Shown: in pieces, positions 10,298 through 19,798 of the stretch | Layout: each line of letters opens with the position of its first letter | How positions within the stretch are numbered: position 1 is the stretch's first letter | DNA from: Silvanigrellaceae bacterium | GTDB lineage: Bacteria; Bdellovibrionota_B; Oligoflexia; Silvanigrellales; Silvanigrellaceae | Direction of reading: 5' to 3' | Assembly (NCBI GenBank): GCA_049423385.1 | Contig: JBMSQQ010000040.1 | Location: forward strand, 1-30,315 | Length of the DNA: 30,315 nucleotides | Notes under the pieces: generated by a model | What the model was told of the DNA's origin: nothing | Seen by the model: only the letters and a program-made list of their open reading frames with translations | Database searches by the model: none | Program-made: the position numbers and the translations under genes

Positions 10298-10615
10298 GTC
10301 TCTCCGGGGTTTCCGTGGGTGGTTATCGGAGCGCAGTGAAGAATCATGAGCCACAAATTTGATGGAGACTTTGGATTCTACCTGTTTCTGCAATTGCAAT
10401 CCGACGGAAGTCTCATTGACATATGTTGGAATCCAGAGAAATGCAGCCACGAACTGAGTGAAGGCAAGCTTTCTTGTGCCTCCAATGTTTGAACTCCATC
10501 ACAGAGTCTGCTTGCTGCTGAGAAATCCGGCACAAAAACTCGCCAAAATCCTCACGTCCAGCCAGCGGGCAAGCCTGAAGTCGGATAAGCTCAAGGACAG
10601 TGGATGGAGGACTTC

Positions 10616-12559
10616 ATGATTAAAGTCGGGCCCTGGCTTTTTGCCCTTTCCTATTTCGTGGTCCCGATGGGATGCAAAAAGCAAAACTCTTCAGGTACAC
10701 AATCTTCATCTTCGACTCAAAAGAAAACGGCCTGCTTGAGTTTTCAGGGCAACGGAGTCTATTTTCCGTCACACATCGGCGCCCTGATTGCCCTGCTTGA
10801 AAACAACATCGAACCCGTATTTGCGGTCGGCGGTTCCAGTGGTTCGATTATTGCGGCTCTGTCGCGTGCGGTGGTCGACAACGCCACCCTTTCACCTTCC
10901 GGTTCATTTCGCCCACAGGACGCTGCTCTGGTCTTGGCAGCAAGCTTACCGATGGTCGAGTCGACTCTTTTTCTTCCGCGTTTCAACACTCCGCTGCGGA
11001 TGCTCGATTCCCTTGATGTCTTCCTGAGTGGTTCCAAACAAGGGGTATTGGCTGCCAGCCCCGACAACGGAATGATCAGTCCCGAATCGATTGTTGGTCA
11101 GTCTGCATTGATCATCAACTTCTTCCGCTCAGCAGACTTCAGGCAGCTGATTCGCATGAACTCACTGCAGGAAAGGGAAAAAGAAATTGTCCGTCTTTGG
11201 AAGAACTATGCGAATGCAATCGCAGTGACTCCCGAGATGTTTGCTGAAGCGTTGCTGGTTGATCGCAACACTTTGATGAACAGCAAGAAAAACGACCTGG
11301 TTGAAATTCAGGACCGCATTTTTGGATTGTTCAGAAGCGTCGGTGGCGAGTATTTCGGAAATTACAAAGACCAACAGGAATCCTGGAATCAGCTTTTGAT
11401 CAGCAATCGAAAAATGCTTGGGGCGGACAACGGAAAAAATAAAATCGAAATGTTCAAGACCGCACTTGAAAAAGCAAAGGCACTGGAAAGTTTTGACGCG
11501 CTTTACGCGACACTCTCGGGTCCATTCCTCCTGCCAGACCCGGTGCGGGTATTCATGGCCTATCAGGGCGTTGAACATGGCTCGCAAAAGCGGATTGAAA
11601 TTCCAACGAACACCATCATCCATGCCACTGCCCGCAGGGCCAGGAAGACAGATGGAAGCTGGAAAGAGTTGAAAGGACTTTCGGCTCTTCATCAAGTCTA
11701 TTTTGCAAACACGCAACAGGCAGAAGGGTTCTCAGCGCGTCTGACAAACCCGCAGCACAATCCGCTTCAACCTCAAAATCGCCAGATGCAACCCGTCATT
11801 CCAGACGAGCGGATTGTTGTCAGTGGACAGTCTCTCGGGCCGAGCCTGACAGCCAGCACCGGCGAGCCGGCAGCTTTTGTTCGAAGTCCCATCAATCTCG
11901 ATGTGGCTTCACGCGGGCGCCTGGGTTGGACGACGCCAGACGAAACATTGGTCGGCTATGGTGGCTGGCTTGAAAAGATTTCGCTGGGCACGGCCATGCA
12001 GTTCGATCAATGTGCACCTGATCGAGTCGATCTCTACTTTTTCACATCAGATGGAGGAGGAGTTGGCAAATTCAACAAGATGGCTTTTCTTGGACTTTTT
12101 GTCGATGAGCCTTATCGGGGCGCCCTGGCAGAGATCGCACAGAACCCTGCCTTGATCAGCAAGCTGTTGTCAGGCAGCACCAACAATTCAGGAATGTTGG
12201 AAGGTCAAGCTCAACGCGAATTCGATGCACTTGTTGTTTCAACCGAACAGCTTTTTGTTGAGGGAAAGAGTGCCAAAGCGAAACAGGGTAACGTGCCCGT
12301 GCTGCTGGAACATGCCAAACCTTCCGACCTGGGTGGAGCCGACGGCGAGCGGCAAAGCATTGTGATCCGTTCGAACCGCAGAGCACTCGTTCTCACGGCC
12401 TACGAAAAAACGCGAAAAATTTTGGATCAACAAAATCTGCTGGGTCGAACGATGATGCTTTGGAATGAGCCTGGTGAGAAAATCAGCATCTCTTCCTTGC
12501 CCACGCCCGAATCTGTGCAGACTGCTATCGAACGCATTGCGCCACGCAGGCAACATTGA
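10616..12559 (+). CDS. Patatin-like phospholipase-fold lipoprotein
   Basis: GGAGG SD; lipobox PMG|C; LSFQGNGVYFPSHIGALIALLE (oxyanion loop) and AVGGSSGSIIA (GxSxG). Confidence 0.7.
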   Translation: MIKVGPWLFALSYFVVPMGCKKQNSSGTQSSSSTQKKTACLSFQGNGVYFPSHIGALIALLENNIEPVFAVGGSSGSIIAALSRAVVDNATLSPSGSFRPQDAALVLAASLPMVESTLFLPRFNTPLRMLDSLDVFLSGSKQGVLAASPDNGMISPESIVGQSALIINFFRSADFRQLIRMNSLQEREKEIVRLWKNYANAIAVTPEMFAEALLVDRNTLMNSKKNDLVEIQDRIFGLFRSVGGEYFGNYKDQQESWNQLLISNRKMLGADNGKNKIEMFKTALEKAKALESFDALYATLSGPFLLPDPVRVFMAYQGVEHGSQKRIEIPTNTIIHATARRARKTDGSWKELKGLSALHQVYFANTQQAEGFSARLTNPQHNPLQPQNRQMQPVIPDERIVVSGQSLGPSLTASTGEPAAFVRSPINLDVASRGRLGWTTPDETLVGYGGWLEKISLGTAMQFDQCAPDRVDLYFFTSDGGGVGKFNKMAFLGLFVDEPYRGALAEIAQNPALISKLLSGSTNNSGMLEGQAQREFDALVVSTEQLFVEGKSAKAKQGNVPVLLEHAKPSDLGGADGERQSIVIRSNRRALVLTAYEKTRKILDQQNLLGRTMMLWNEPGEKISISSLPTPESVQTAIERIAPRRQH

Positions 12560-12690
12560 ATCGGTCGGAGAAGAGTTCGCCACGTCAGCGGAGTATCCGG
12601 CTGATGCAAGTGTGATGACGAGTCGAACTCGGTTGGAATCAAGTGGAGCACGTCACATGCTCTTTGCTGTATCGAAGTCATCTTCTTCGC

Positions 12691-13059
12691 TCACTTGGAA
12701 AGATATTCTGCAAGAAACCTGACCTCATTCTCAGATAGAGGGTCGGCGTATCGGGGCGGCATCGGGTTTTCATTGTCCTGAATACGTGCCAGGGAACGTT
12801 GCCTTACAGATCGGAATTCTGCTTCGATGTTGAAGTCCAGAAGGGGCGTTGAAGCGGGTACAAACTCGCTTTTCTTTTCTGTATGACAAGAAGCACAGCG
12901 CTCCTTCACGAGTTGTCCAACTCCATTTTGCCAAGATGGCACTGTGGCTGAGATATTGACGCCTGTTGGCGTGATGTCAGCTAATGTTTCCGCATGCGAG
13001 CATGCGGAGATTATCGCAACGAAAGATATTGCAATGATGTGTGTTCTGAAATTTCTCAT
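12691..13059 (-). CDS. Monoheme c-type cytochrome lipoprotein
   Basis: Lipobox ISA|C, heme motif CASCH, distal MPP (axial Met candidate). ATGA overlap with the upstream MNIO fusion ORF. Confidence 0.82.
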   Translation of the reverse strand: MRNFRTHIIAISFVAIISACSHAETLADITPTGVNISATVPSWQNGVGQLVKERCASCHTEKKSEFVPASTPLLDFNIEAEFRSVRQRSLARIQDNENPMPPRYADPLSENEVRFLAEYLSK

Positions 13060-15485
13060 CTTTCAACCTCTGCTTTTACGATGGGTGTCTGGAATCTGAA
13101 GAAGAAACGTACCGCGCTCAACCGTGAGGGAATAAAGAGTTGCGCAGCTCCAATCTGAAGTTGCGGTGAAGCCTGCCAGCCCAATGAGACCTGGCCGCCA
13201 AAGCTCCCTTCACCGTGATTTTCATTGAGGTCATTGCTGCCATCTTCAACAAGCAAAAGGTTTTGGTCCTCGGCGATAAAGAACTTGCTCGTCGCATTTC
13301 GTCTGAACGCCATAACTTCAGAATAAATAGCTGATCTCTTGTGGGTACCTGAAATCGAAAAGCCCGAGCTCGAGTTGCTGCTTTTGAAGCTGTCAGCGCT
13401 TCCTGTGGTCGCCGCACTTGAAAAACGACCCGTCAGTTGGGAGTCACCCGTTTGCTGATAAAGGCGTGCTCCCCAGATTATTCCATCCGACAAAATACCC
13501 TGTGTATCGGAGGCCTGAACTTCCAGGCCGAACTTTGTTTGTGTGAATATGCTTCCGCCGCTGAGAAAACTTCTTGATGCTTGTTCCGGAAGCCAACCTG
13601 CAAATCCGCGGATCAAAATCGAGCTCTTGAGCAGGTGGGTTGAAAAGGGTGCAATGGAAACACCCAGGGTTGGCAGCACGTGCACAGGTGCTGAGGGAAC
13701 TCCCTCGGTCTTTGACCCCACCGTTGAGTCGATATTCGGAACCAGGGTGGCAGAAGTGCCAAGGTCGAAGGTCAATTGTCCGGTTGAGGGAGCCGCAAGG
13801 CCCGCCGGAACGTCATCCAACAAGCTCGCGCTGACCTGTATCAGCCTGCGGGTTTGGTCTTTCCAGACTTCTGCAGAAGCGTTGTCACTGATGAAAAAAC
13901 TTGCCAGCAGAATGGTAACGACCCTGGTTGTGAGTCCACCAAGGCGGAAGAGTGTGGTGAGCCAAATTTGAACACCAAGAGCAGCAGAATCTTCATGATG
14001 TTTTCCATCTGAATCAAGTGCCTCTTCAAGCGAAGCGCCATTGTTCAATTGGAGTGCGATGTCCTTGCACTCGTCGGGAATGACAACGGTGTGAAGATCA
14101 CACTCGGACGATCGAAAGAGGATGTGGCCGCCGTGGGCAACAGCGGTCGGCTTTTGAGGACAATTCTCATCAGCAGGCTCCTTCCGCTGCGACGCCCGAA
14201 CAAAAACTGTGGTTGGATTCAAATGGATTTCTCCGAGTGGGGTTTCCGAAGTAGGGGTCGAGATTTCTTTATTTTCACTGGTCAGGACATTCCAGCGGGC
14301 AATGCAGAGTTCGACCATTTGGCTCAGTTCTGGGAATTCTTCATCCAGGTTCCTGGATTTCAGATATCCCGCAAGTCCCAGCAAGTTGTCCTGCAACAAC
14401 ACACCACTTAGGCCCGACGTAATGGCATAATTTGCTATCCATGCCTGAACGCGGTGGTTTCCAAATTTATCGTTCAATGGTGTCAGCAGTGTGTTCGAGA
14501 GTGTCTGTGTGATGCGTGAATAGAAGCAGTCTCTGTAGACGTCGATTTGATGGCTGAGAGATTCTTCGATCTTCAGTCTTGCTGGGTCTGTTTGGGTCCA
14601 TGGAGGAGTGTAGACGGCTTCCACGAAATGGCTTTGCACTTCGGCAAGCTCACGGGGAGTCTCTGGTTCAGTTTCAATCACATTGATTTTTCCAACACCA
14701 TCGTTCAATTCATTGATGAGCGTTGCCAAGCTGGCGTTTGGATCATCATTTTCAAGTACAATGGGATTGAGTCCAAAACGATGCAGGCAGCTTGTGAGCA
14801 GACTCCAACAATTTTCAGATACTGGCTGGTCATGGGTGTCGTGTAGCCATGAACCATGATTTGTGTGACCGGCTATATGGTACTGAGTCACCATCCAGGG
14901 CTCGAGAAATTCAAGTTCATCTTCTGTGGACGTGCCAAGGTTGAAGCTTGTGACAAGCACGTTGTTGACATCAAGAAGAATTCCACAGCCGGTTTCTCGG
15001 CAGAGTCGTGCAAGAAATTCCAACTCGCTCATTTCATCATGTTTGAACCGGACGTACCGGGAAAGGTTTTCCAAGCTCAAACGATGTCCAACAACACGCT
15101 GAACCTCTCTGACCCGATGAGCAACCCAGTGAAGATTTTCCTGCGTGTAGGGAAAAGGCAGGAGGTCGTAGGTTGCTTTTGCGTGAGTGCGTGTAAAGCA
15201 GAGGTGATCTGAAATCACTCGAGGTTGAACCAATTCAGACAACTCTGAAAGGCCATCAAGGTATCGCACATCCAAAGGCGAGGTGCCTGCAATGTTGATT
15301 CCCACTCCGTGCATGACAGTGCGACGGTCTTTTACAGTTTCAGCCAAATGAAAGCGGCCCCGTCCTCCGGCTTGGTGGATATAGTTGTCAGTCATGACCT
15401 CGACCCAAAGTCCTGTGCCGACATTCTTCCATTCATGATAGTGACCCGGGCGAAGTCCCATTCCGATAAAATCCGAGAGTTTCAA
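13056..15485 (-). CDS. MNIO (DUF692, BufB-like) fused to a DUF2063-like partner domain and a C-terminal exported beta-barrel-like domain
   Basis: IGMGLRPGH, VEVMTDNY, HGVG, SDHLCF, YDLLP, LENLSRY, LLDVNN, HIAGH, HDTH, LENDD (DUF692). Then LAEVQSHF..QIDVYRDCFYSR (DUF2063-like), hydrophobic VVTILLASFFI..NASA, and amphipathic beta-strands. Probable start TTG 15485 (GGAGG SD). Confidence 0.88.
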   Translation of the reverse strand: MKLSDFIGMGLRPGHYHEWKNVGTGLWVEVMTDNYIHQAGGRGRFHLAETVKDRRTVMHGVGINIAGTSPLDVRYLDGLSELSELVQPRVISDHLCFTRTHAKATYDLLPFPYTQENLHWVAHRVREVQRVVGHRLSLENLSRYVRFKHDEMSELEFLARLCRETGCGILLDVNNVLVTSFNLGTSTEDELEFLEPWMVTQYHIAGHTNHGSWLHDTHDQPVSENCWSLLTSCLHRFGLNPIVLENDDPNASLATLINELNDGVGKINVIETEPETPRELAEVQSHFVEAVYTPPWTQTDPARLKIEESLSHQIDVYRDCFYSRITQTLSNTLLTPLNDKFGNHRVQAWIANYAITSGLSGVLLQDNLLGLAGYLKSRNLDEEFPELSQMVELCIARWNVLTSENKEISTPTSETPLGEIHLNPTTVFVRASQRKEPADENCPQKPTAVAHGGHILFRSSECDLHTVVIPDECKDIALQLNNGASLEEALDSDGKHHEDSAALGVQIWLTTLFRLGGLTTRVVTILLASFFISDNASAEVWKDQTRRLIQVSASLLDDVPAGLAAPSTGQLTFDLGTSATLVPNIDSTVGSKTEGVPSAPVHVLPTLGVSIAPFSTHLLKSSILIRGFAGWLPEQASRSFLSGGSIFTQTKFGLEVQASDTQGILSDGIIWGARLYQQTGDSQLTGRFSSAATTGSADSFKSSNSSSGFSISGTHKRSAIYSEVMAFRRNATSKFFIAEDQNLLLVEDGSNDLNENHGEGSFGGQVSLGWQASPQLQIGAAQLFIPSRLSAVRFFFRFQTPIVKAEVER

Positions 15486-15579
15486 TGATTTTCCCTCCAT
15501 CCAAGTTCGACAAGGGATACGTTTCGGGGGCGTCAAAAGTGACATGAGCATGCAAAATCATAAGGGGCTTGTCAGTGTT

Positions 15580-15604
15580 GTAACCAAAAACAGGCTCAAT
15601 CGAA
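15580..15604 (+). promoter_or_regulatory. Putative ECF (SigF/ECF16-type) promoter
   Basis: GTAACC-N15-CGAA, 60 bp upstream of the precursor ATG. Close to the Caulobacter SigF consensus GTAACC-N16-CGAA as recalled. Confidence 0.65.
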
Positions 15605-15664
15605 TTACCTCTCGACGGTTTCGGACATGATGTTTTGTCCAACTGATCGAAGGAGTGATACCTG

Positions 15665-16048
15665 ATGAAAAAGACACTTGGATTCCTGGCAACGACAGCG
15701 CTTTTGGCAGCTTGCGGAAATTCAAAGACCGCACAAACCGACGACAACAAGAATACGAGTCCATTGGCCTCTGCGGATCAAAATGAAATTGTACGATGTT
15801 TTGGCATCAACAGCTGCTCATCATACGCGAAATGTGCAGTGACCGCTGCAGATGTCGAGGCAACAAAGAGAGTCTTTGGCGACAAATTTGCAGCGACCGA
15901 GCTTCATGAGTGCGCTGGTCTTGCGAAGTGCGCTGCAGCATCTGGTCAGTTGAATTGGGTTCAGGTCAGTCGCCAGGAATGCGCTCAAAAAGAGGGATTT
16001 CTGATCACAAACGCGGCCGATGGGACAAAAGTCGTCAACAAGATTTGA
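15665..16048 (+). CDS. Bufferin-like (BufA2-type, six-Cys) MNIO RiPP precursor, lipoprotein
   Basis: AAGGAG SD; lipobox LAA|C17; CFGINSC-x5-C ... HECAGLAKC ... W..V...EC (C45, 51, 57, 83, 89, 106); adjacent to MNIO. Confidence 0.8.
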   Translation: MKKTLGFLATTALLAACGNSKTAQTDDNKNTSPLASADQNEIVRCFGINSCSSYAKCAVTAADVEATKRVFGDKFAATELHECAGLAKCAAASGQLNWVQVSRQECAQKEGFLITNAADGTKVVNKI

Positions 16049-16162
16049 GGACGACGATGAACTCCCTGTGACCGGCGTTTTGACATATCAAATATCGTTT
16101 TGCGGGTGTGGGCTGATAGGCTTGCACTCGCGTGCTCGATTTTTTGGAGGAGATTTGGCGAG

Positions 16163-16759
16163 ATGAACCCATCGACAACGCCAAACGACAGGGAGTGGCA
16201 GAATGCGCAACTTTTGTTCATGGCCTATCTATCGGGAGACGCCTCCGTTGTTAATCAACTTTTCACCTTGCTGGGACGAGCCGTCCGTGGTTTTTTCTTC
16301 GCGCGCACGAGATCTCAGGACGACAGCGACGACTTGACACAAGCGACGCTCCTTAAAATTCACCTTGCCAGGCATTCATTCGATTCGCGTTTGTCTTTGA
16401 AAACATGGATGTTTACGATCGCCCATAGAACCTTGATTGATCATTGGCGAAAGAGAGGCCGCAGGGACGCAACCGAGACTCAGGAAGACTCAGGAATTCT
16501 GAGTGATTACAGTGACCCGGAGACTATTGAACTGTCGACACTTGTCGCCCTGCGCGGGGTGCTGGAAAAGGCTCTTGAGTCGTTGAAACCATCCGATCGC
16601 TCGATCGTATATTTGGGTGTGGTGGAGGGGCTTTCCATGTCCGAATTGGCTGTTGTGGTCAACTCCACCGAGGGTGCTGTCAAGGTGAAATTGCATCGTC
16701 TGCTCAGGAACCTGAGAGGATCCTTGAGAGAGATGGAAGCCCAAGGAGACTCCCCATGA
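16163..16759 (+). CDS. ECF RNA polymerase sigma factor (SigF/ECF16-like)
   Basis: Region 2 DDLTQATLLKIHLARHSFD..KTWMFTIAHRTLIDHWR; region 4 EGLSMSELA..STEGAVKVKLHR. ATGA overlap with the next gene. Confidence 0.9.
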   Translation: MNPSTTPNDREWQNAQLLFMAYLSGDASVVNQLFTLLGRAVRGFFFARTRSQDDSDDLTQATLLKIHLARHSFDSRLSLKTWMFTIAHRTLIDHWRKRGRRDATETQEDSGILSDYSDPETIELSTLVALRGVLEKALESLKPSDRSIVYLGVVEGLSMSELAVVVNSTEGAVKVKLHRLLRNLRGSLREMEAQGDSP

Positions 16760-17439
16760 GTTTTGAACAGAATAATCTCTTTGATTATATCGCGAACGAT
16801 GTTGCTTCAGGACAGAAAATGAAGTCGTTGCGTTGGCTGTTGTCCGCAGCAGTGGTTTTGATTCCAGCGATCTTCATTGCGAGTATGGGATTCAATCCAG
16901 GCCTGACCTGGTCTGGATCATGGATGCCTTGGGCAATGCTTCTTTCGTTTGTCGCTTTGGTTCTGCTATTTGGAAGTTCTTTAGGTGGTGCTCCTCGTGT
17001 GCGCTGGATTACATTGTTATGCGCCGCAGTTCTCTTCTTTTCATTGATTTTCCCTCAGTTTGGAGATGCTTTTGATCCTGTCGTGGAAAGTGGTGGTGAT
17101 TGGCTTGACTCGCTGCATTGTTTCGGTTTTGGATTGATGATGGGTGCAGTCACATCATGTGTTTTGATTTTCACCGTTTTCCGATGGGGTCCAGTTCCGA
17201 ATTCAGGAACACGCCTTACGATGAGCCAGGTTGCGGGGCTTGCAGGAGTTGTTGGACTTTTCTTTTATTGTCCCAATTCCGATTTGGTTCATTTGTTTAC
17301 GGGGCACGGGCTACAAACTGCAATAGTTTTTGCTGGCGCTTATCTTTTCTCTCAGTTCCTGTTTTCCCGGATTATTCGTAAACAACTGGGAAAGTCCGCG
17401 GTTCAGTTCGAAAACCTGAGAAAATTCGACAACGATTAG
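16756..17439 (+). CDS. NrsF/DUF1109-like membrane anti-sigma factor
   Basis: About 6 TM helices, HCF and FYCPxxDxxHLxxxH motifs, translationally coupled to the ECF sigma. Confidence 0.72.
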   Translation: MSFEQNNLFDYIANDVASGQKMKSLRWLLSAAVVLIPAIFIASMGFNPGLTWSGSWMPWAMLLSFVALVLLFGSSLGGAPRVRWITLLCAAVLFFSLIFPQFGDAFDPVVESGGDWLDSLHCFGFGLMMGAVTSCVLIFTVFRWGPVPNSGTRLTMSQVAGLAGVVGLFFYCPNSDLVHLFTGHGLQTAIVFAGAYLFSQFLFSRIIRKQLGKSAVQFENLRKFDND

Positions 17440-17627: not shown

Positions 17628-18827
17628 CTATCGATCATTTGGAACAGAGTCTTTTCTCGCTGAAGATGTCGAAAGGAGATTCCAAAGATAATGCATGAGC
17701 ATCCAAGCGAAGGATAATTTAATCCACAAGAGATAATGCGAAACGATTTGTGCTTCGGACCAATGATACAAATCGCGGAGCTTGTTCAAATCTCCATCGT
17801 TCTCATCGGTTGATATTGCACTTCCCCAGGGTATCCGAGAGGGATCGTTGCGAATCTGAAGCCACTGCATGGCAGCTGCACCAAAAAGCATGCCCCCGAG
17901 TGACACAACGGGGAATCGCCAAAAGTCCCAACGCAGTCGCGGTGGAAGGCGGTAGACAAAAGAAGCAACCAGGAGTGCAGAAAAAACAATTTCGCCTGTG
18001 AATCCAAAGGCGATTCGGTTTTCATTGATTCGCTCCAAAGGCACGAAAAACGTTGCCCAGAATTGAATCAGTAATGCCGCCGCAAAGAAGAGAATCATCA
18101 CGCGTGAACGCCAGTGAATTGCCGTAACGATTCCAGCAGTCCACAATGTGCAGAAGAACAGGATGACAGAATTGGACCTGATTTCATCCCATGAGGTAAA
18201 AAAGGGCAAGGGCGTTGCAGAGATCCCCGCAAACCACGAAGCGGCAGCATGCCCCAATTCGTGCAATGGCATGCTCAGAAATCTCAAGAAAACCCGCAAA
18301 CCTGTCAACTCGAACAAGGCTCCGACAAGTGTCGCCAGAGGAATGGCCAACAGCTCTATCATTAATGTTGTTGGGAGTTCAACATCATCGTTTTGTGTTC
18401 GGATGACATTCGACGTGTTTGATACTCTCGACACATCCCACCGGCCCTGACTGGCATGCCGTTGTTTCACATAGTAAGTTCGAAGGCACTTTGCCGTCTC
18501 ATCCGAAACAAGTTGTCCTTGGCACCCGCGACAATTCCAAAACCGATGGCGCTGCAGGCTCACGACTTGCAACGATGAATCCGGACAGCGCGGGCACCAG
18601 AGATTCGAAGACTCACCCTCTTGAGATTGCTCGTCGTCGAAAGTCGCAATCCCCCGTTCAATTGCCTTGCTCCCAACAAAAAGTTCAAATTCACCGGAGT
18701 CGAACCACGACAATTCACAATCAGAACAGCGATTCAAGACAAGTCTATGATCGACGGAAAAATCCGTAATTTTCGTTCTACATTTGGGACACAAGATCGC
18801 TGCTGGTTGAGTGTGTTCTTCGGCCAT
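17628..18827 (-). CDS. Double Zn-ribbon (zf-TFIIB-like) fused to an M50-like membrane metallopeptidase domain
   Basis: CPKC..CSDC..WFDSGE and CPRC..CRGC; PLHELGH in a TM context; DGDL. ATG 18827 with AAGGA SD. Confidence 0.75.
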   Translation of the reverse strand: MAEEHTQPAAILCPKCRTKITDFSVDHRLVLNRCSDCELSWFDSGEFELFVGSKAIERGIATFDDEQSQEGESSNLWCPRCPDSSLQVVSLQRHRFWNCRGCQGQLVSDETAKCLRTYYVKQRHASQGRWDVSRVSNTSNVIRTQNDDVELPTTLMIELLAIPLATLVGALFELTGLRVFLRFLSMPLHELGHAAASWFAGISATPLPFFTSWDEIRSNSVILFFCTLWTAGIVTAIHWRSRVMILFFAAALLIQFWATFFVPLERINENRIAFGFTGEIVFSALLVASFVYRLPPRLRWDFWRFPVVSLGGMLFGAAAMQWLQIRNDPSRIPWGSAISTDENDGDLNKLRDLYHWSEAQIVSHYLLWIKLSFAWMLMHYLWNLLSTSSARKDSVPNDR

Positions 18828-19206
18828 TGCACAGCATCCTTGTCTATAATTCGATTCCGTCATCTGTGGAACAGCGCACCCCAGTTCAACCAATGACACG
18901 CTCGCAACAATGATATGACCTGCGTTCAGAGCGTGCATGAACGGATTTTTGGCGATCAATGGGATTCAACAAGAATGACTGCTGTGACCGGCATGCGGAA
19001 ACGATCCGGGCCAACGGAAGACCCTTGCCTATTTTGCAAAGCTGTTCCATCGGCCAGTTCCGCAAGTCCAAGCACTTGCAGCGCGTTCCGAAAAATTTCG
19101 AATCGTCTCTTTGCTGGAGTTTGTTGACCGGAGAGGGGCAAGGCGATGTCACTGGGTGACAGTTCGAGTGAGTTGAAACCTGTGCTGTGCACCAAGCCGA
19201 AAGGAT

Positions 19207-19506
19207 CTACCTTCTGCTTGGATAAATTCCCACTGTACAAATAAAGTGGACTACTTTCTCGTTTGGACTGTTCAGATTGGGAACAGCAAAGGTTGTTCGC
19301 GAATCGCCACCGTACCTGTTTCCAAGAAGTGAATATAGCGCCTGGTTTTCGAAAATTTGCAGCAACTGACCATCAGCTCTGACAAACCCTTCAAGCTCGG
19401 TGTTCGGAAAAAGTAATGCAAATGAACGAACCTCTCCCAAATAGCACTCAGACGCGAAAGCACTGGTCGACAGTAAAGTGCCCAAAACAACTGCTGCAGC
19501 TTTCAT
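19207..19506 (-). CDS. Phage tail-collar domain (microcystin-dependent protein-like) mini-protein with signal peptide
   Basis: YLGEVRSFA..DGQLLQI..NQALYSLLGNRYGGD..TTFAVPNL..FICTVGIYPSR; signal peptide ending AFA; AGGAG SD. Confidence 0.85.
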   Translation of the reverse strand: MKAAAVVLGTLLSTSAFASECYLGEVRSFALLFPNTELEGFVRADGQLLQIFENQALYSLLGNRYGGDSRTTFAVPNLNSPNEKVVHFICTVGIYPSRR

Positions 19507-19798
19507 AAATTGAATCTCCTGGACAATTGATGATGATGTTGATCGTATCAAGACGACAGGTAGTATATTCAATTCTATTTGAAAAGAGAAAAGTTTGAGA
19601 AATTTTCAAGGGGTAAGACGCACAATTCACTGGGTTTGCATTGATGCGTTGGTGAAGTGCTTGCAGCTGCTGTTGGCACGCCTTTGAATCCTTCCAAAGT
19701 TCGAACGCAACTGCTGTGCGCGCCATGACGCCTGGAATCAGCTGAATGAATGTAAAGAATTTGCTCGCAGGACGTTGAACTATGCTTGGCAAAAAACT

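Follow-up and report, generated by a model that had tools for sequence, protein, structure and literature searches.

The DNA analysed here is one contig of 30,315 nucleotides (JBMSQQ010000040.1, our C40) from a metagenome-assembled genome of a Silvanigrellaceae bacterium (GCA_049423385.1; 3.47 Mb, 183 contigs, 90.6% complete), and 'the window' below means this whole contig. Between positions 12,691 and 17,439 it carries five genes in two divergent units that resemble, remotely, the bufferin loci, in which an enzyme of the MNIO family modifies a Cys-rich exported precursor to yield a ribosomally synthesised and post-translationally modified peptide (RiPP). One unit encodes the precursor, an extracytoplasmic function (ECF) sigma factor and a membrane anti-sigma factor, and the other encodes a very long protein and a c-type cytochrome (Table 1). 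All five open reading frames (ORFs) drawn in the first-pass annotation of this DNA are present where it placed them and on the same strands, and the precursor and the enzyme do lie in divergent units, as it had described, with a spacer of 180 nt between them. The long protein of 809-831 amino acids (aa) is a triple fusion of an MNIO enzyme, its partner protein and a C-terminal domain modelled as a barrel, and the barrel and the cytochrome constitute an older two-gene module that has been captured by the bufferin locus.

Table 1. Genes, protein domains and promoter-like motifs of the locus, with positions in the window.
Feature	Position	Strand	Details
Lipoprotein monohaem c-type cytochrome, 122 aa	12691..13059	-	one CASCH haem motif; lipobox ISAC
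Fusion ORF, 831 aa	13056..15551	-	likely true start TTG 15485, giving 809 aa
MNIO (DUF692) domain	14703..15467	-	residues 29-283 of the 831-aa ORF
Partner (PME) domain, DUF2063-like and RRE-like	13953..14654	-	residues ~300-533
Internal signal-peptide-like segment	13872..13952	-	residues 534-560
C-terminal helix and predicted outer-membrane-type beta-barrel	13059..13871	-	residues 561-831
Promoter-like motif of the ECF type towards the fusion gene, GTCACT-N16-CGTAT	15517..15543	-	
Promoter-like motif of the ECF type towards the precursor gene, GTAACC-N15-CGAAT	15580..15605	+	
Precursor, 127 aa	15665..16048	+	lipobox LAAC and six more Cys
ECF sigma factor	16163..16759	+	ORF opens at 16100; likely start ATG 16163
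Six-helix membrane anti-sigma factor, NrsF/DUF1109 type, 227 aa	16756..17439	+	4-nt overlap with the sigma gene

The start of the fusion gene was assigned because a Shine-Dalgarno sequence (GGAGGG) lies 7 nt upstream of the TTG and the resulting N-terminus agrees with the homologues, and that of the sigma gene because it follows the sequence GGAGGAG. The ATG of the cytochrome gene shares bases with the stop codon of the fusion gene (ATGA). Given that the window belongs to a fragmented metagenome-assembled genome, it is reasonable to ask if the long ORF might be an assembly or frameshift artefact joining separate genes. DNA nearly identical to the locus, sharing at least half of the sampled words, occurs in six public sequencing runs from two studies, and the fusion junction is covered without any indel by contigs from four other public runs, again from two studies. 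One contig of 5.6 kb spans positions 12600-16100 with three substitutions, although the window may itself derive from that run, and three additional contigs bridge the junction. Furthermore, the continuous frame is kept in seven other protein clusters and in four other genomes. The junction does not result from faulty assembly, and we regard the idea that it does as extremely unlikely.

The full-length relatives in these seven clusters, counted besides that of the window, are 801-822 aa long and 48-76% identical. The arrangement recurs in related genomes, and a profile search finds the fused form in five of the 13 genomes of the genus to which that of the window belongs. When one genome for each of 185,579 species was searched with two peptide patterns, only four loci were retrieved; these come from river-water metagenome-assembled genomes labelled 'Pseudomonadota bacterium' and are identical with the four other fused genomes of the genus.

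The enzymatic domain of the fusion protein matches the Pfam model PF05114 with an E-value of 1.6e-76 and 257.5 bits (cut-off 25), and the first-pass reading of a bufferin-type MNIO locus is supported. Its best match in NCBIfam is BufB (NF050167) at 251.6 bits, under the equivalog cut-off of 310, followed by HvfB at 185.9, and solved MNIO structures are also matched (3bww with an E-value of 2.2e-28, as well as TglH and MbnB). The region that follows has no direct match in Pfam, even at an E-value of 10. A phmmer search with residues 290-831 against 1.84 billion cluster representatives returned 77 proteins, 17 of which align to this region, and all eight homologues of the region that were scanned carry PF09836 (DUF2063) at E<=0.01, seven of them above the cut-off.

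An AlphaFold2 model of this middle domain (15 sequences, pLDDT 84.2) retrieved TglI (8hi7_A), NGO1945 (3dee) and TglHI (8hci_A) as the top three Foldseek matches, each with a probability of 1.00, whereas the fourth match reached an E-value of only 0.37; a sequence-profile search of the PDB gave a single chance match (E 0.13). Proteins of the TglI/NGO1945 type are described as MNIO partner proteins in section 18 of PMC12452194. The PF09836 matches of the homologues and the fold matches to TglI and NGO1945 support the assignment of the middle domain as a partner of the DUF2063 type joined to a RiPP recognition element (RRE). Compared with TglI and NGO1945 (PME types 1 and 2), the predicted fold is alike but a direct PF09836 match is missing.

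Fusions of an MNIO to its partner occur naturally elsewhere; we found five of 547-598 aa, four of them with PF09836. When HvfB was joined by engineering to HvfC, with the enzyme first and the partner second, the fusion is reported to have been active and to have exceeded the separate proteins (bioRxiv 10.64898/2026.07.17.739211). The domain order of the window protein is identical, but its fusion is natural and runs on into an exported domain. The same genome holds two more MNIO genes, at C94:3039-4696 and C14:16778-18383, each followed by a gene of partner size. The enzyme encoded on C94 shares 45% identity with the fused one, and no precursor was recognised in six-frame translations upstream of either gene.

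After the partner domain comes a segment that was not remarked upon in the first-pass annotation, which had otherwise correctly described a barrel fused to the MNIO and its DUF2063 partner. The segment has the build of a cleavable signal peptide, with a basic residue closing the stretch FRLGGLTTR, a hydrophobic core of 11 residues (VVTILLASFFI), and an A-x-A site at the end of SDNASA, after which the sequence EVWK follows. The Ala residues at -3 and -1 and the EVWK after the site are invariant in all eight fused proteins, and the core is 11-13 residues long across them.

Most of the proteins retrieved (56 of the 77 representatives) align only downstream of this segment and are free proteins, mostly of 250-390 aa. 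Among 29 aligned stand-alone homologues, 27 have an N-terminal presequence of their own, 18-53 residues long and ending at the same column, and the remaining two are truncated at the N-terminus. A conserved helix, V-T-W-E-x-Q-A-E-R-L-Q, follows the presequence in these aligned homologues. Two fused homologues have kept a Met at the ancestral start position. Separate translation of the barrel from an internal start was considered and rejected for the window, because the codon at the ancestral start (L537) is CTT.

A model of the C-terminal 290 residues (AlphaFold2, 30 sequences, pLDDT 86.1, pTM 0.81) consists of a long N-terminal helix and then 10-12 strands. When this model was aligned by VIA-align with 48,161 chains, the eight best matches were outer-membrane or designed membrane barrels, including OmpT (Z 14.4 over 207 residues, root-mean-square deviation 4.1), OpcA (14.3), a Legionella porin (14.0) and the Hbp beta-domain (13.2), whereas soluble barrels reached only Z 11.6 and lower. 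Foldseek returned 40 matches at E<=0.001, and those listed are outer-membrane barrels. Searches by sequence yielded little: no Pfam family in any of the 18 stand-alone members scanned, no match in a sequence-profile search of the PDB, and weak leads in the ESM Atlas (DUF3943 and DUF6850 clusters) with a recognition value under its mark. The models thus support a barrel of the outer-membrane type from an unnamed family.

In its arrangement of a helix followed by 10-12 long strands, the model is reminiscent of autotransporter beta-domains and FapF, outer-membrane barrels that have an N-terminal pore helix, and the helix of the window protein may likewise sit inside the barrel. The parts aligned with the beta-domains of Hbp, NalP, EspP and AIDA-I take in the helix, the model ranges starting at residues 13-22. 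The window barrel has no sequence similarity to autotransporters, OmpT/Pla or OpcA; it has no passenger domain and is paired with a lipoprotein cytochrome c.

It is possible to read the internal segment in another way, namely as an uncleaved signal anchor that tethers the maturase to the inner membrane, with the beta-rich domain remaining in the periplasm, where it would dock or chaperone either the exported precursor or the cytochrome, rather than forming an outer-membrane barrel. Single-pass proteins with their N-terminus in the cytoplasm and a large periplasmic domain outside are common. The fused barrels lack a terminal aromatic residue and stand on a long branch, and the soluble barrels nitrobindin and Rv2717c, with 8-10 strands, match the model at Z 10-11.6. 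Yet a core of 11-13 residues with an A-x-A site invariant in eight of eight proteins is built for cleavage, whereas an anchor would have some 20 residues, the nearest relatives are exported as free proteins, the best structural matches are membrane barrels, and the lipid-facing surface of such a barrel would probably be insoluble in the periplasm. We consider this explanation unlikely.

With only about 35 residues between the hydrophobic segment and the first strand, an uncleaved protein could hardly place its barrel in the outer membrane. A precedent for division at such a site is FbcH of Bradyrhizobium, a cytochrome b-c1 polyprotein for which signal peptidase is proposed to make the cut, at a signal sequence within the chain. 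Both halves of FbcH are membrane or periplasmic respiratory proteins, whereas cleavage is predicted here to separate a cytoplasmic enzyme from an outer-membrane protein. Our literature search on bacterial polyproteins with internal signal peptides returned virus papers only.

The cytochrome that follows the fusion gene has one haem-binding motif (C55-C58-H59), a PMPP sequence for the Met ligand and a lipoprotein start running from MRNFR to IISAC20, with Ser at position +2, in keeping with the c-type cytochrome recognised in the first-pass annotation. The lipobox Cys, Trp43, the CxxCH motif and the Met-Pro pair are invariant among 16 aligned cytochromes. Its Pfam scores fall slightly short of the cut-offs (24.9 bits against 27 for Cytochrome_CBB3, and 20.8 against 21.3 for another cytochrome c model). 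It is 31% identical (E 5e-15) to the N-terminal domain of a dihaem cytochrome encoded on contig C91 of the same genome, which passes Cytochrome_CBB3 at 58.5 bits. A monohaem cytochrome of 122-127 aa lies directly downstream in all four other fused loci. In one of these (genome G110), the cytochrome gene is followed on the same strand by a gene for a HupE/UreJ-family membrane protein (L039:9188-9997; PF13795, E 5.7e-51), a family linked to nickel and cobalt uptake.

The barrel and its cytochrome also exist as a pair away from any MNIO. A profile of the barrel matches 33 of the 131 genomes of the phylum, with four copies in the genome of the window (G000). Two of these (C91:3020-4168 and C32:30753-31733) are each followed by a gene for a lipoprotein dihaem cytochrome c, with a 4-nt overlap and no MNIO. 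These pairs lie outside the window and span C91:3020-4830 (part of locus L028) and C32:30055-31733, and the latter is followed by genes for a 649-aa protein with two CxxCH motifs and for a protein with a Tat signal. We examined the neighbours of 16 stand-alone barrel loci from other genomes. In 11 of them the barrel gene immediately adjoins, on its own strand, a gene for a CxxCH protein, and an MNIO lies within 4.5 kb in none. A third group of paralogues has no cytochrome (C30:27862-28947 in G000, L055:7587-8423 and L056:7463-8308); in three genomes of the genus these barrels converge on a gene for a RelA/SpoT-like protein of ~775-786 aa, and the group forms a clade of its own (SH-aLRT 100).

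A quick maximum-likelihood tree was built from 29 barrel rows, comprising 10 fused barrels, the 16 stand-alone loci and three paralogues from the genome itself (the fused loci L040 and L041 were not separate rows). All 10 fused rows form one clade with an SH-aLRT of 100 and a stem of 1.86, nested among cytochrome-adjacent barrels, and this single clade points to a single fusion event.

The first-pass annotation had placed the barrel and cytochrome 'where DoxX would be expected', and this part of it is not supported. It was right that the locus has no DoxX: none is encoded in the window, and the genome has a single DoxX match, located on contig C11. However, an adjacent DoxX is also missing from all five canonical loci of the lineage with precursor, MNIO and partner, and the DoxX matches of their genomes lie either on different contigs or at a distance of over 0.5 Mb. 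Because the canonical loci of the lineage are also without a nearby DoxX, its absence is a trait of the lineage. Genes for periplasmic proteins of the YceI family (PF04264, E 1e-44 to 1e-49) precede three of the five canonical loci scanned (L093:6135-6791, L094:1886-2527 and L096:2594-3298). They also occur beside a stand-alone barrel-cytochrome pair (L045:5837-6484) and 2 kb from the G110 fused locus (L039:11244-11858).

One might still propose that the barrel and cytochrome replace DoxX as the redox or membrane component of a self-contained bufferin system. DoxX is missing in the window, in all five genomes the two would share a transcript with the maturase, and fusions of the type Buf1|Cytochrom_C exist according to section 14 of PMC12452194. 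Against this, the canonical loci of the lineage leave no slot to fill, and the barrel-cytochrome pair is widespread where there is no MNIO (11 of the 16 loci, C91 and C32). For these two reasons the barrel and cytochrome are not in a DoxX slot, and their role as a replacement is improbable.

Likewise, the fusion could be an evolutionary accident in which a deletion joined neighbouring operons and left the module with an unrelated envelope job on a shared transcript. That the module works without an MNIO elsewhere fits such an origin, as does the restriction of the fused form to one genus-level lineage (five of 13 genomes, and only the four other loci among the 185,579 species genomes with the patterns used). 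But the fusion has been retained in proteins that have diverged to as little as 48% identity; every member still has the junction, the A-x-A site and a cytochrome gene downstream; and the whole unit stands behind a conserved ECF-type motif. We therefore hold an accident to be quite unlikely.

Turning to the peptide, the precursor begins with MKK, a hydrophobic stretch and the lipobox LLAAC17, continues with a linker of ~28 residues and ends in a domain with six Cys (Cys45, 51, 57, 83, 89 and 106). Its only NCBIfam match is BufA2 (E 1e-4; 22.4 bits, where the cut-off is 60), which is also the best match in all seven relatives scanned, at 16.6-29 bits; a DUF2282 (Buf1) match is absent from our Pfam scans. 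The precursor family is present in 45 of the 131 genomes of the phylum. At 13 of 26 loci outside the fused type, a member lies directly upstream of an MNIO gene, often as a tandem pair, with a partner gene next, and one more of the 26 is cut by a contig end. It is this association that ties the exported Cys-rich protein to the MNIO, as the first-pass annotation had suggested. The alignment keeps C-[FWY]-G-x-N-x-C...C and H-x-C-x-G-x3-C...W...C...GGF.

The sequence indicates a remote relationship to BufA2. As in Buf2/BufA2 proteins (Buf_6/12Cys), there are six Cys in the exported domain and a signal peptide of the Sec type, but the window family has an insertion of ~25 residues between its two Cys clusters and scores of 17-29 bits, far under the cut-off.

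Lipoproteins were called by the consensus [LVI][ASTVI][GAS]C, preceded by an N-terminus that starts with basic residues and continues with hydrophobic ones. In the precursor alignment such a lipobox is restricted to the fused-locus clade, where all six orthologues have it, in agreement with the lipid anchor predicted in the first-pass annotation. Residue +2 is Gly in the precursor and Ser in the cytochrome, so both lack the acidic residue described as the inner-membrane retention signal of lipoproteins (PMC13056109). A lipid anchor on bufferins of the Buf2 type has been published before, since section 14 of PMC12452194 predicts ~16% of them to be lipoproteins.

Additional members of the precursor family were encountered. 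In genome G112, a second precursor-like gene (L042:3503-4135, on G112:C336) lies directly downstream of the cytochrome c gene on the same strand and is 63% identical over residues 25-124, and a divergent precursor orthologue is found on another contig of that genome. The genome of the window also encodes an orphan paralogue of 133 aa with six Cys and a non-lipoprotein signal peptide (C182:1008-1409, on a 2-kb contig; BufA2 29 bits, E 9e-7), whose orthologues in the genus (e.g. L074, L075, L085 and L087) are likewise not beside an MNIO.

The ECF sigma factor matches Sigma70_r2 (E 6.7e-15, 55.1 bits) and Sigma70_r4_2 (E 1.8e-8, 34.4 bits) in Pfam. The anti-sigma factor has six hydrophobic segments, as read by eye, and reaches the Pfam NrsF model (PF06532) with an E-value of 0.016 and 15.5 bits, under the gathering score of 26.8. 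Two of four homologues match this model weakly and two have no match, and a homologue with 64% identity is labelled 'DUF1109 family protein' by NCBI. Cys122 and Cys172, 50 residues apart, are invariant in all seven sequences. NrsF of Caulobacter is described as a protein of 214 aa with six helices, in which the conserved C131 and C181 control sigmaF (PMC3511200). The pair resembles SigF/NrsF, which is in keeping with its first-pass classification. An invariant loop after helix 5 (residues 172-185, C-P-x-S-D-x-x-H-L-F-x-G-H-G), which is periplasmic by our reading of the topology, is a candidate metal-sensing site.

The sigmaF/NrsF regulon of Caulobacter is reported to include operons of the order DUF2282-DUF692-DUF2063(-DoxX) behind the site GTAACC-N16-CGAA (PMC3511200). 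In the divergent spacer of the window, a motif that differs from this site by a spacer one base shorter lies 59 nt before the precursor ATG, and a second motif lies on the opposite strand about 31 nt before the fusion-gene TTG. A strict version of the motif has eight matches in the genome, of which only the one before the precursor has a promoter-like placement, and none is near the stand-alone barrel-cytochrome pairs. A relaxed pattern has 20 matches in the genome and two in the window, both in the divergent spacer, whereas 200 dinucleotide shuffles of the window gave a mean of 0.125 matches, with three shuffles reaching two.

The enzyme-side motif is present in all five genomes, and in the other four (L039, L040, L041 and L061) it reads GTAACC-N15/16-CGTAT at the same place. 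The precursor-side motif is found in all four genomes for which this DNA is available (those of the window, L039, L040 and L061). In G110, the precursor has been relocated behind the anti-sigma gene and retains its own motif.

Several other genes of the window deserve brief mention. At 10604-12559 (+) a lipoprotein-like protein of 651 aa without a family is encoded, and at 17628-18959 (-) a protein of 443 aa with a zinc ribbon (PF13453) and several membrane helices; neither gene is conserved beside the locus elsewhere. Further on, at 19207-19572 (-), is the gene for an exported protein of 121 aa that contains a domain of phage tail collars (PF07484, E 6.8e-16), and no other phage genes were noticed nearby.

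Taken as a whole, the locus can be compared with the bufferin operons that SigF and NrsF control in Caulobacter, as portrayed in PMC3511200 and PMC12452194. Both have an exported Cys-rich precursor, an MNIO and a partner of the DUF2063 type, an ECF sigma factor, an anti-sigma factor of ~220 aa with six helices and two Cys 50 residues apart, and, before the precursor, a sequence of the GTAACC...CGAA type, which in the window is a promoter-like motif. They differ in that the window precursor is a predicted lipoprotein and a remote six-Cys relative of BufA2, not a DUF2282 protein; enzyme and partner are fused; DoxX is absent; precursor and enzyme are divergent; and a barrel and a cytochrome c have been added. 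Neither an MNIO fused to an exported barrel, nor a barrel-cytochrome gene pair, nor sigma and NrsF genes beside a Buf2-type precursor turned up in the literature we searched, which did not extend to the PDF supplement of PMC12452194, where an MNIO-barrel fusion might be listed. The main text of that paper contains neither 'barrel' nor 'outer membrane' and has cytochromes only as Buf1|Cytochrom_C fusions, and its two spreadsheets contain neither 'cytochrom' nor 'YceI'.

We lean, on balance, towards regarding the locus as a bufferin-type RiPP stress system that has absorbed an unrelated outer-membrane module, a scheme that we judge somewhat probable. A number of points weigh against it. Because the curated cut-offs for BufB, BufA2 and NrsF are all missed, family membership is remote, and with the absence of DoxX this makes the locus a remote variant and not an equivalog-level member. 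Sigma and NrsF genes occur in Buf1 but not in Buf2 clusters according to section 14 of PMC12452194, so their pairing with a Buf2-type precursor is atypical. The -35 element on the enzyme side of the window is GTCACT and not GTAACC. The motif pattern was relaxed after the sequences had been seen, and the comparison with shuffled sequences is therefore indicative only. No RNA run is listed among the public runs that carry DNA of the locus.

The outer-membrane part of the scheme has difficulties of its own. Cleavage at the internal signal peptide is an argument from motifs only. A C-terminal Phe is found in eight of the 29 aligned stand-alone relatives, whereas the eight fused members have no terminal aromatic residue, and this, together with the branch of 1.86, could signify a changed role for the fused barrels. 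Finally, contact of the barrel or the cytochrome with the bufferin is only proposed. A predicted complex of the barrel with the cytochrome c scored 0.30, the mark being 0.32, and speaks neither for nor against binding.

If the scheme is correct, the NrsF-like anti-sigma factor would hold the ECF sigma factor at the inner membrane, and its invariant Cys residues and Cys/His-rich loop might sense metal or oxidative stress in the envelope. Once freed, the sigma factor would fire two back-to-back promoters of the sigmaF type. One would drive the precursor, sigma and anti-sigma genes, which implies autoregulation, and the other would drive the fusion gene and the cytochrome c gene. The MNIO, which the fusion keeps attached to its DUF2063/RRE partner, would oxidise Cys residues of the six-Cys precursor while this is still in the cytoplasm. 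BufBC is described as converting Cys to thiooxazole (PMC13056109), and by analogy the products here may be 5-thiooxazoles. The precursor would then exit via Sec, be lipidated at Cys17 and, given the Gly at +2, be sorted to the outer membrane, where the lipopeptide might chelate copper or a similar metal.

The same maturase would have a second fate. Sec would translocate its C-terminal 271 residues by means of the internal signal peptide, and signal peptidase I would cut after ASA560, freeing a protein of helix plus barrel for the outer membrane while the maturase may stay at the membrane beside the translocon. We suggest that the module was fused once to the maturase in this clade, was thereby put under the same sigma factor, and probably acts at the outer membrane on metal or on the lipidated peptide.

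A bolder version can be entertained, in which the system is an assembly line across the envelope. Specifically, signal peptidase would divide the polypeptide into a membrane-side maturase at Sec and a helix-plugged barrel. The barrel, with its lipoprotein cytochrome, would receive the lipidated thiooxazole peptide, and the two would then display it at the surface or pass electrons to its bound metal. This version is speculative, and we think it unlikely to hold in full. If true, the stand-alone barrel-cytochrome pairs of the phylum would represent a new type of small porin-cytochrome, an outer-membrane redox module.

Bufferins are among the largest RiPP families. The locus described here brings a system of the bufferin type together with a c-type cytochrome and a predicted outer-membrane barrel, and it offers for biochemistry a natural enzyme-partner fusion of the kind that raised activity when it was engineered. 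Furthermore, it exposes an unnamed family of exported barrels, present in 33 of 131 genomes of the phylum and without a Pfam model, whose members have lipoprotein cytochromes c as partners. It would be a very unusual arrangement in bacteria for an enzyme of the cytoplasm to be linked, across a conserved signal-peptidase site, with what appears to be an outer-membrane protein.

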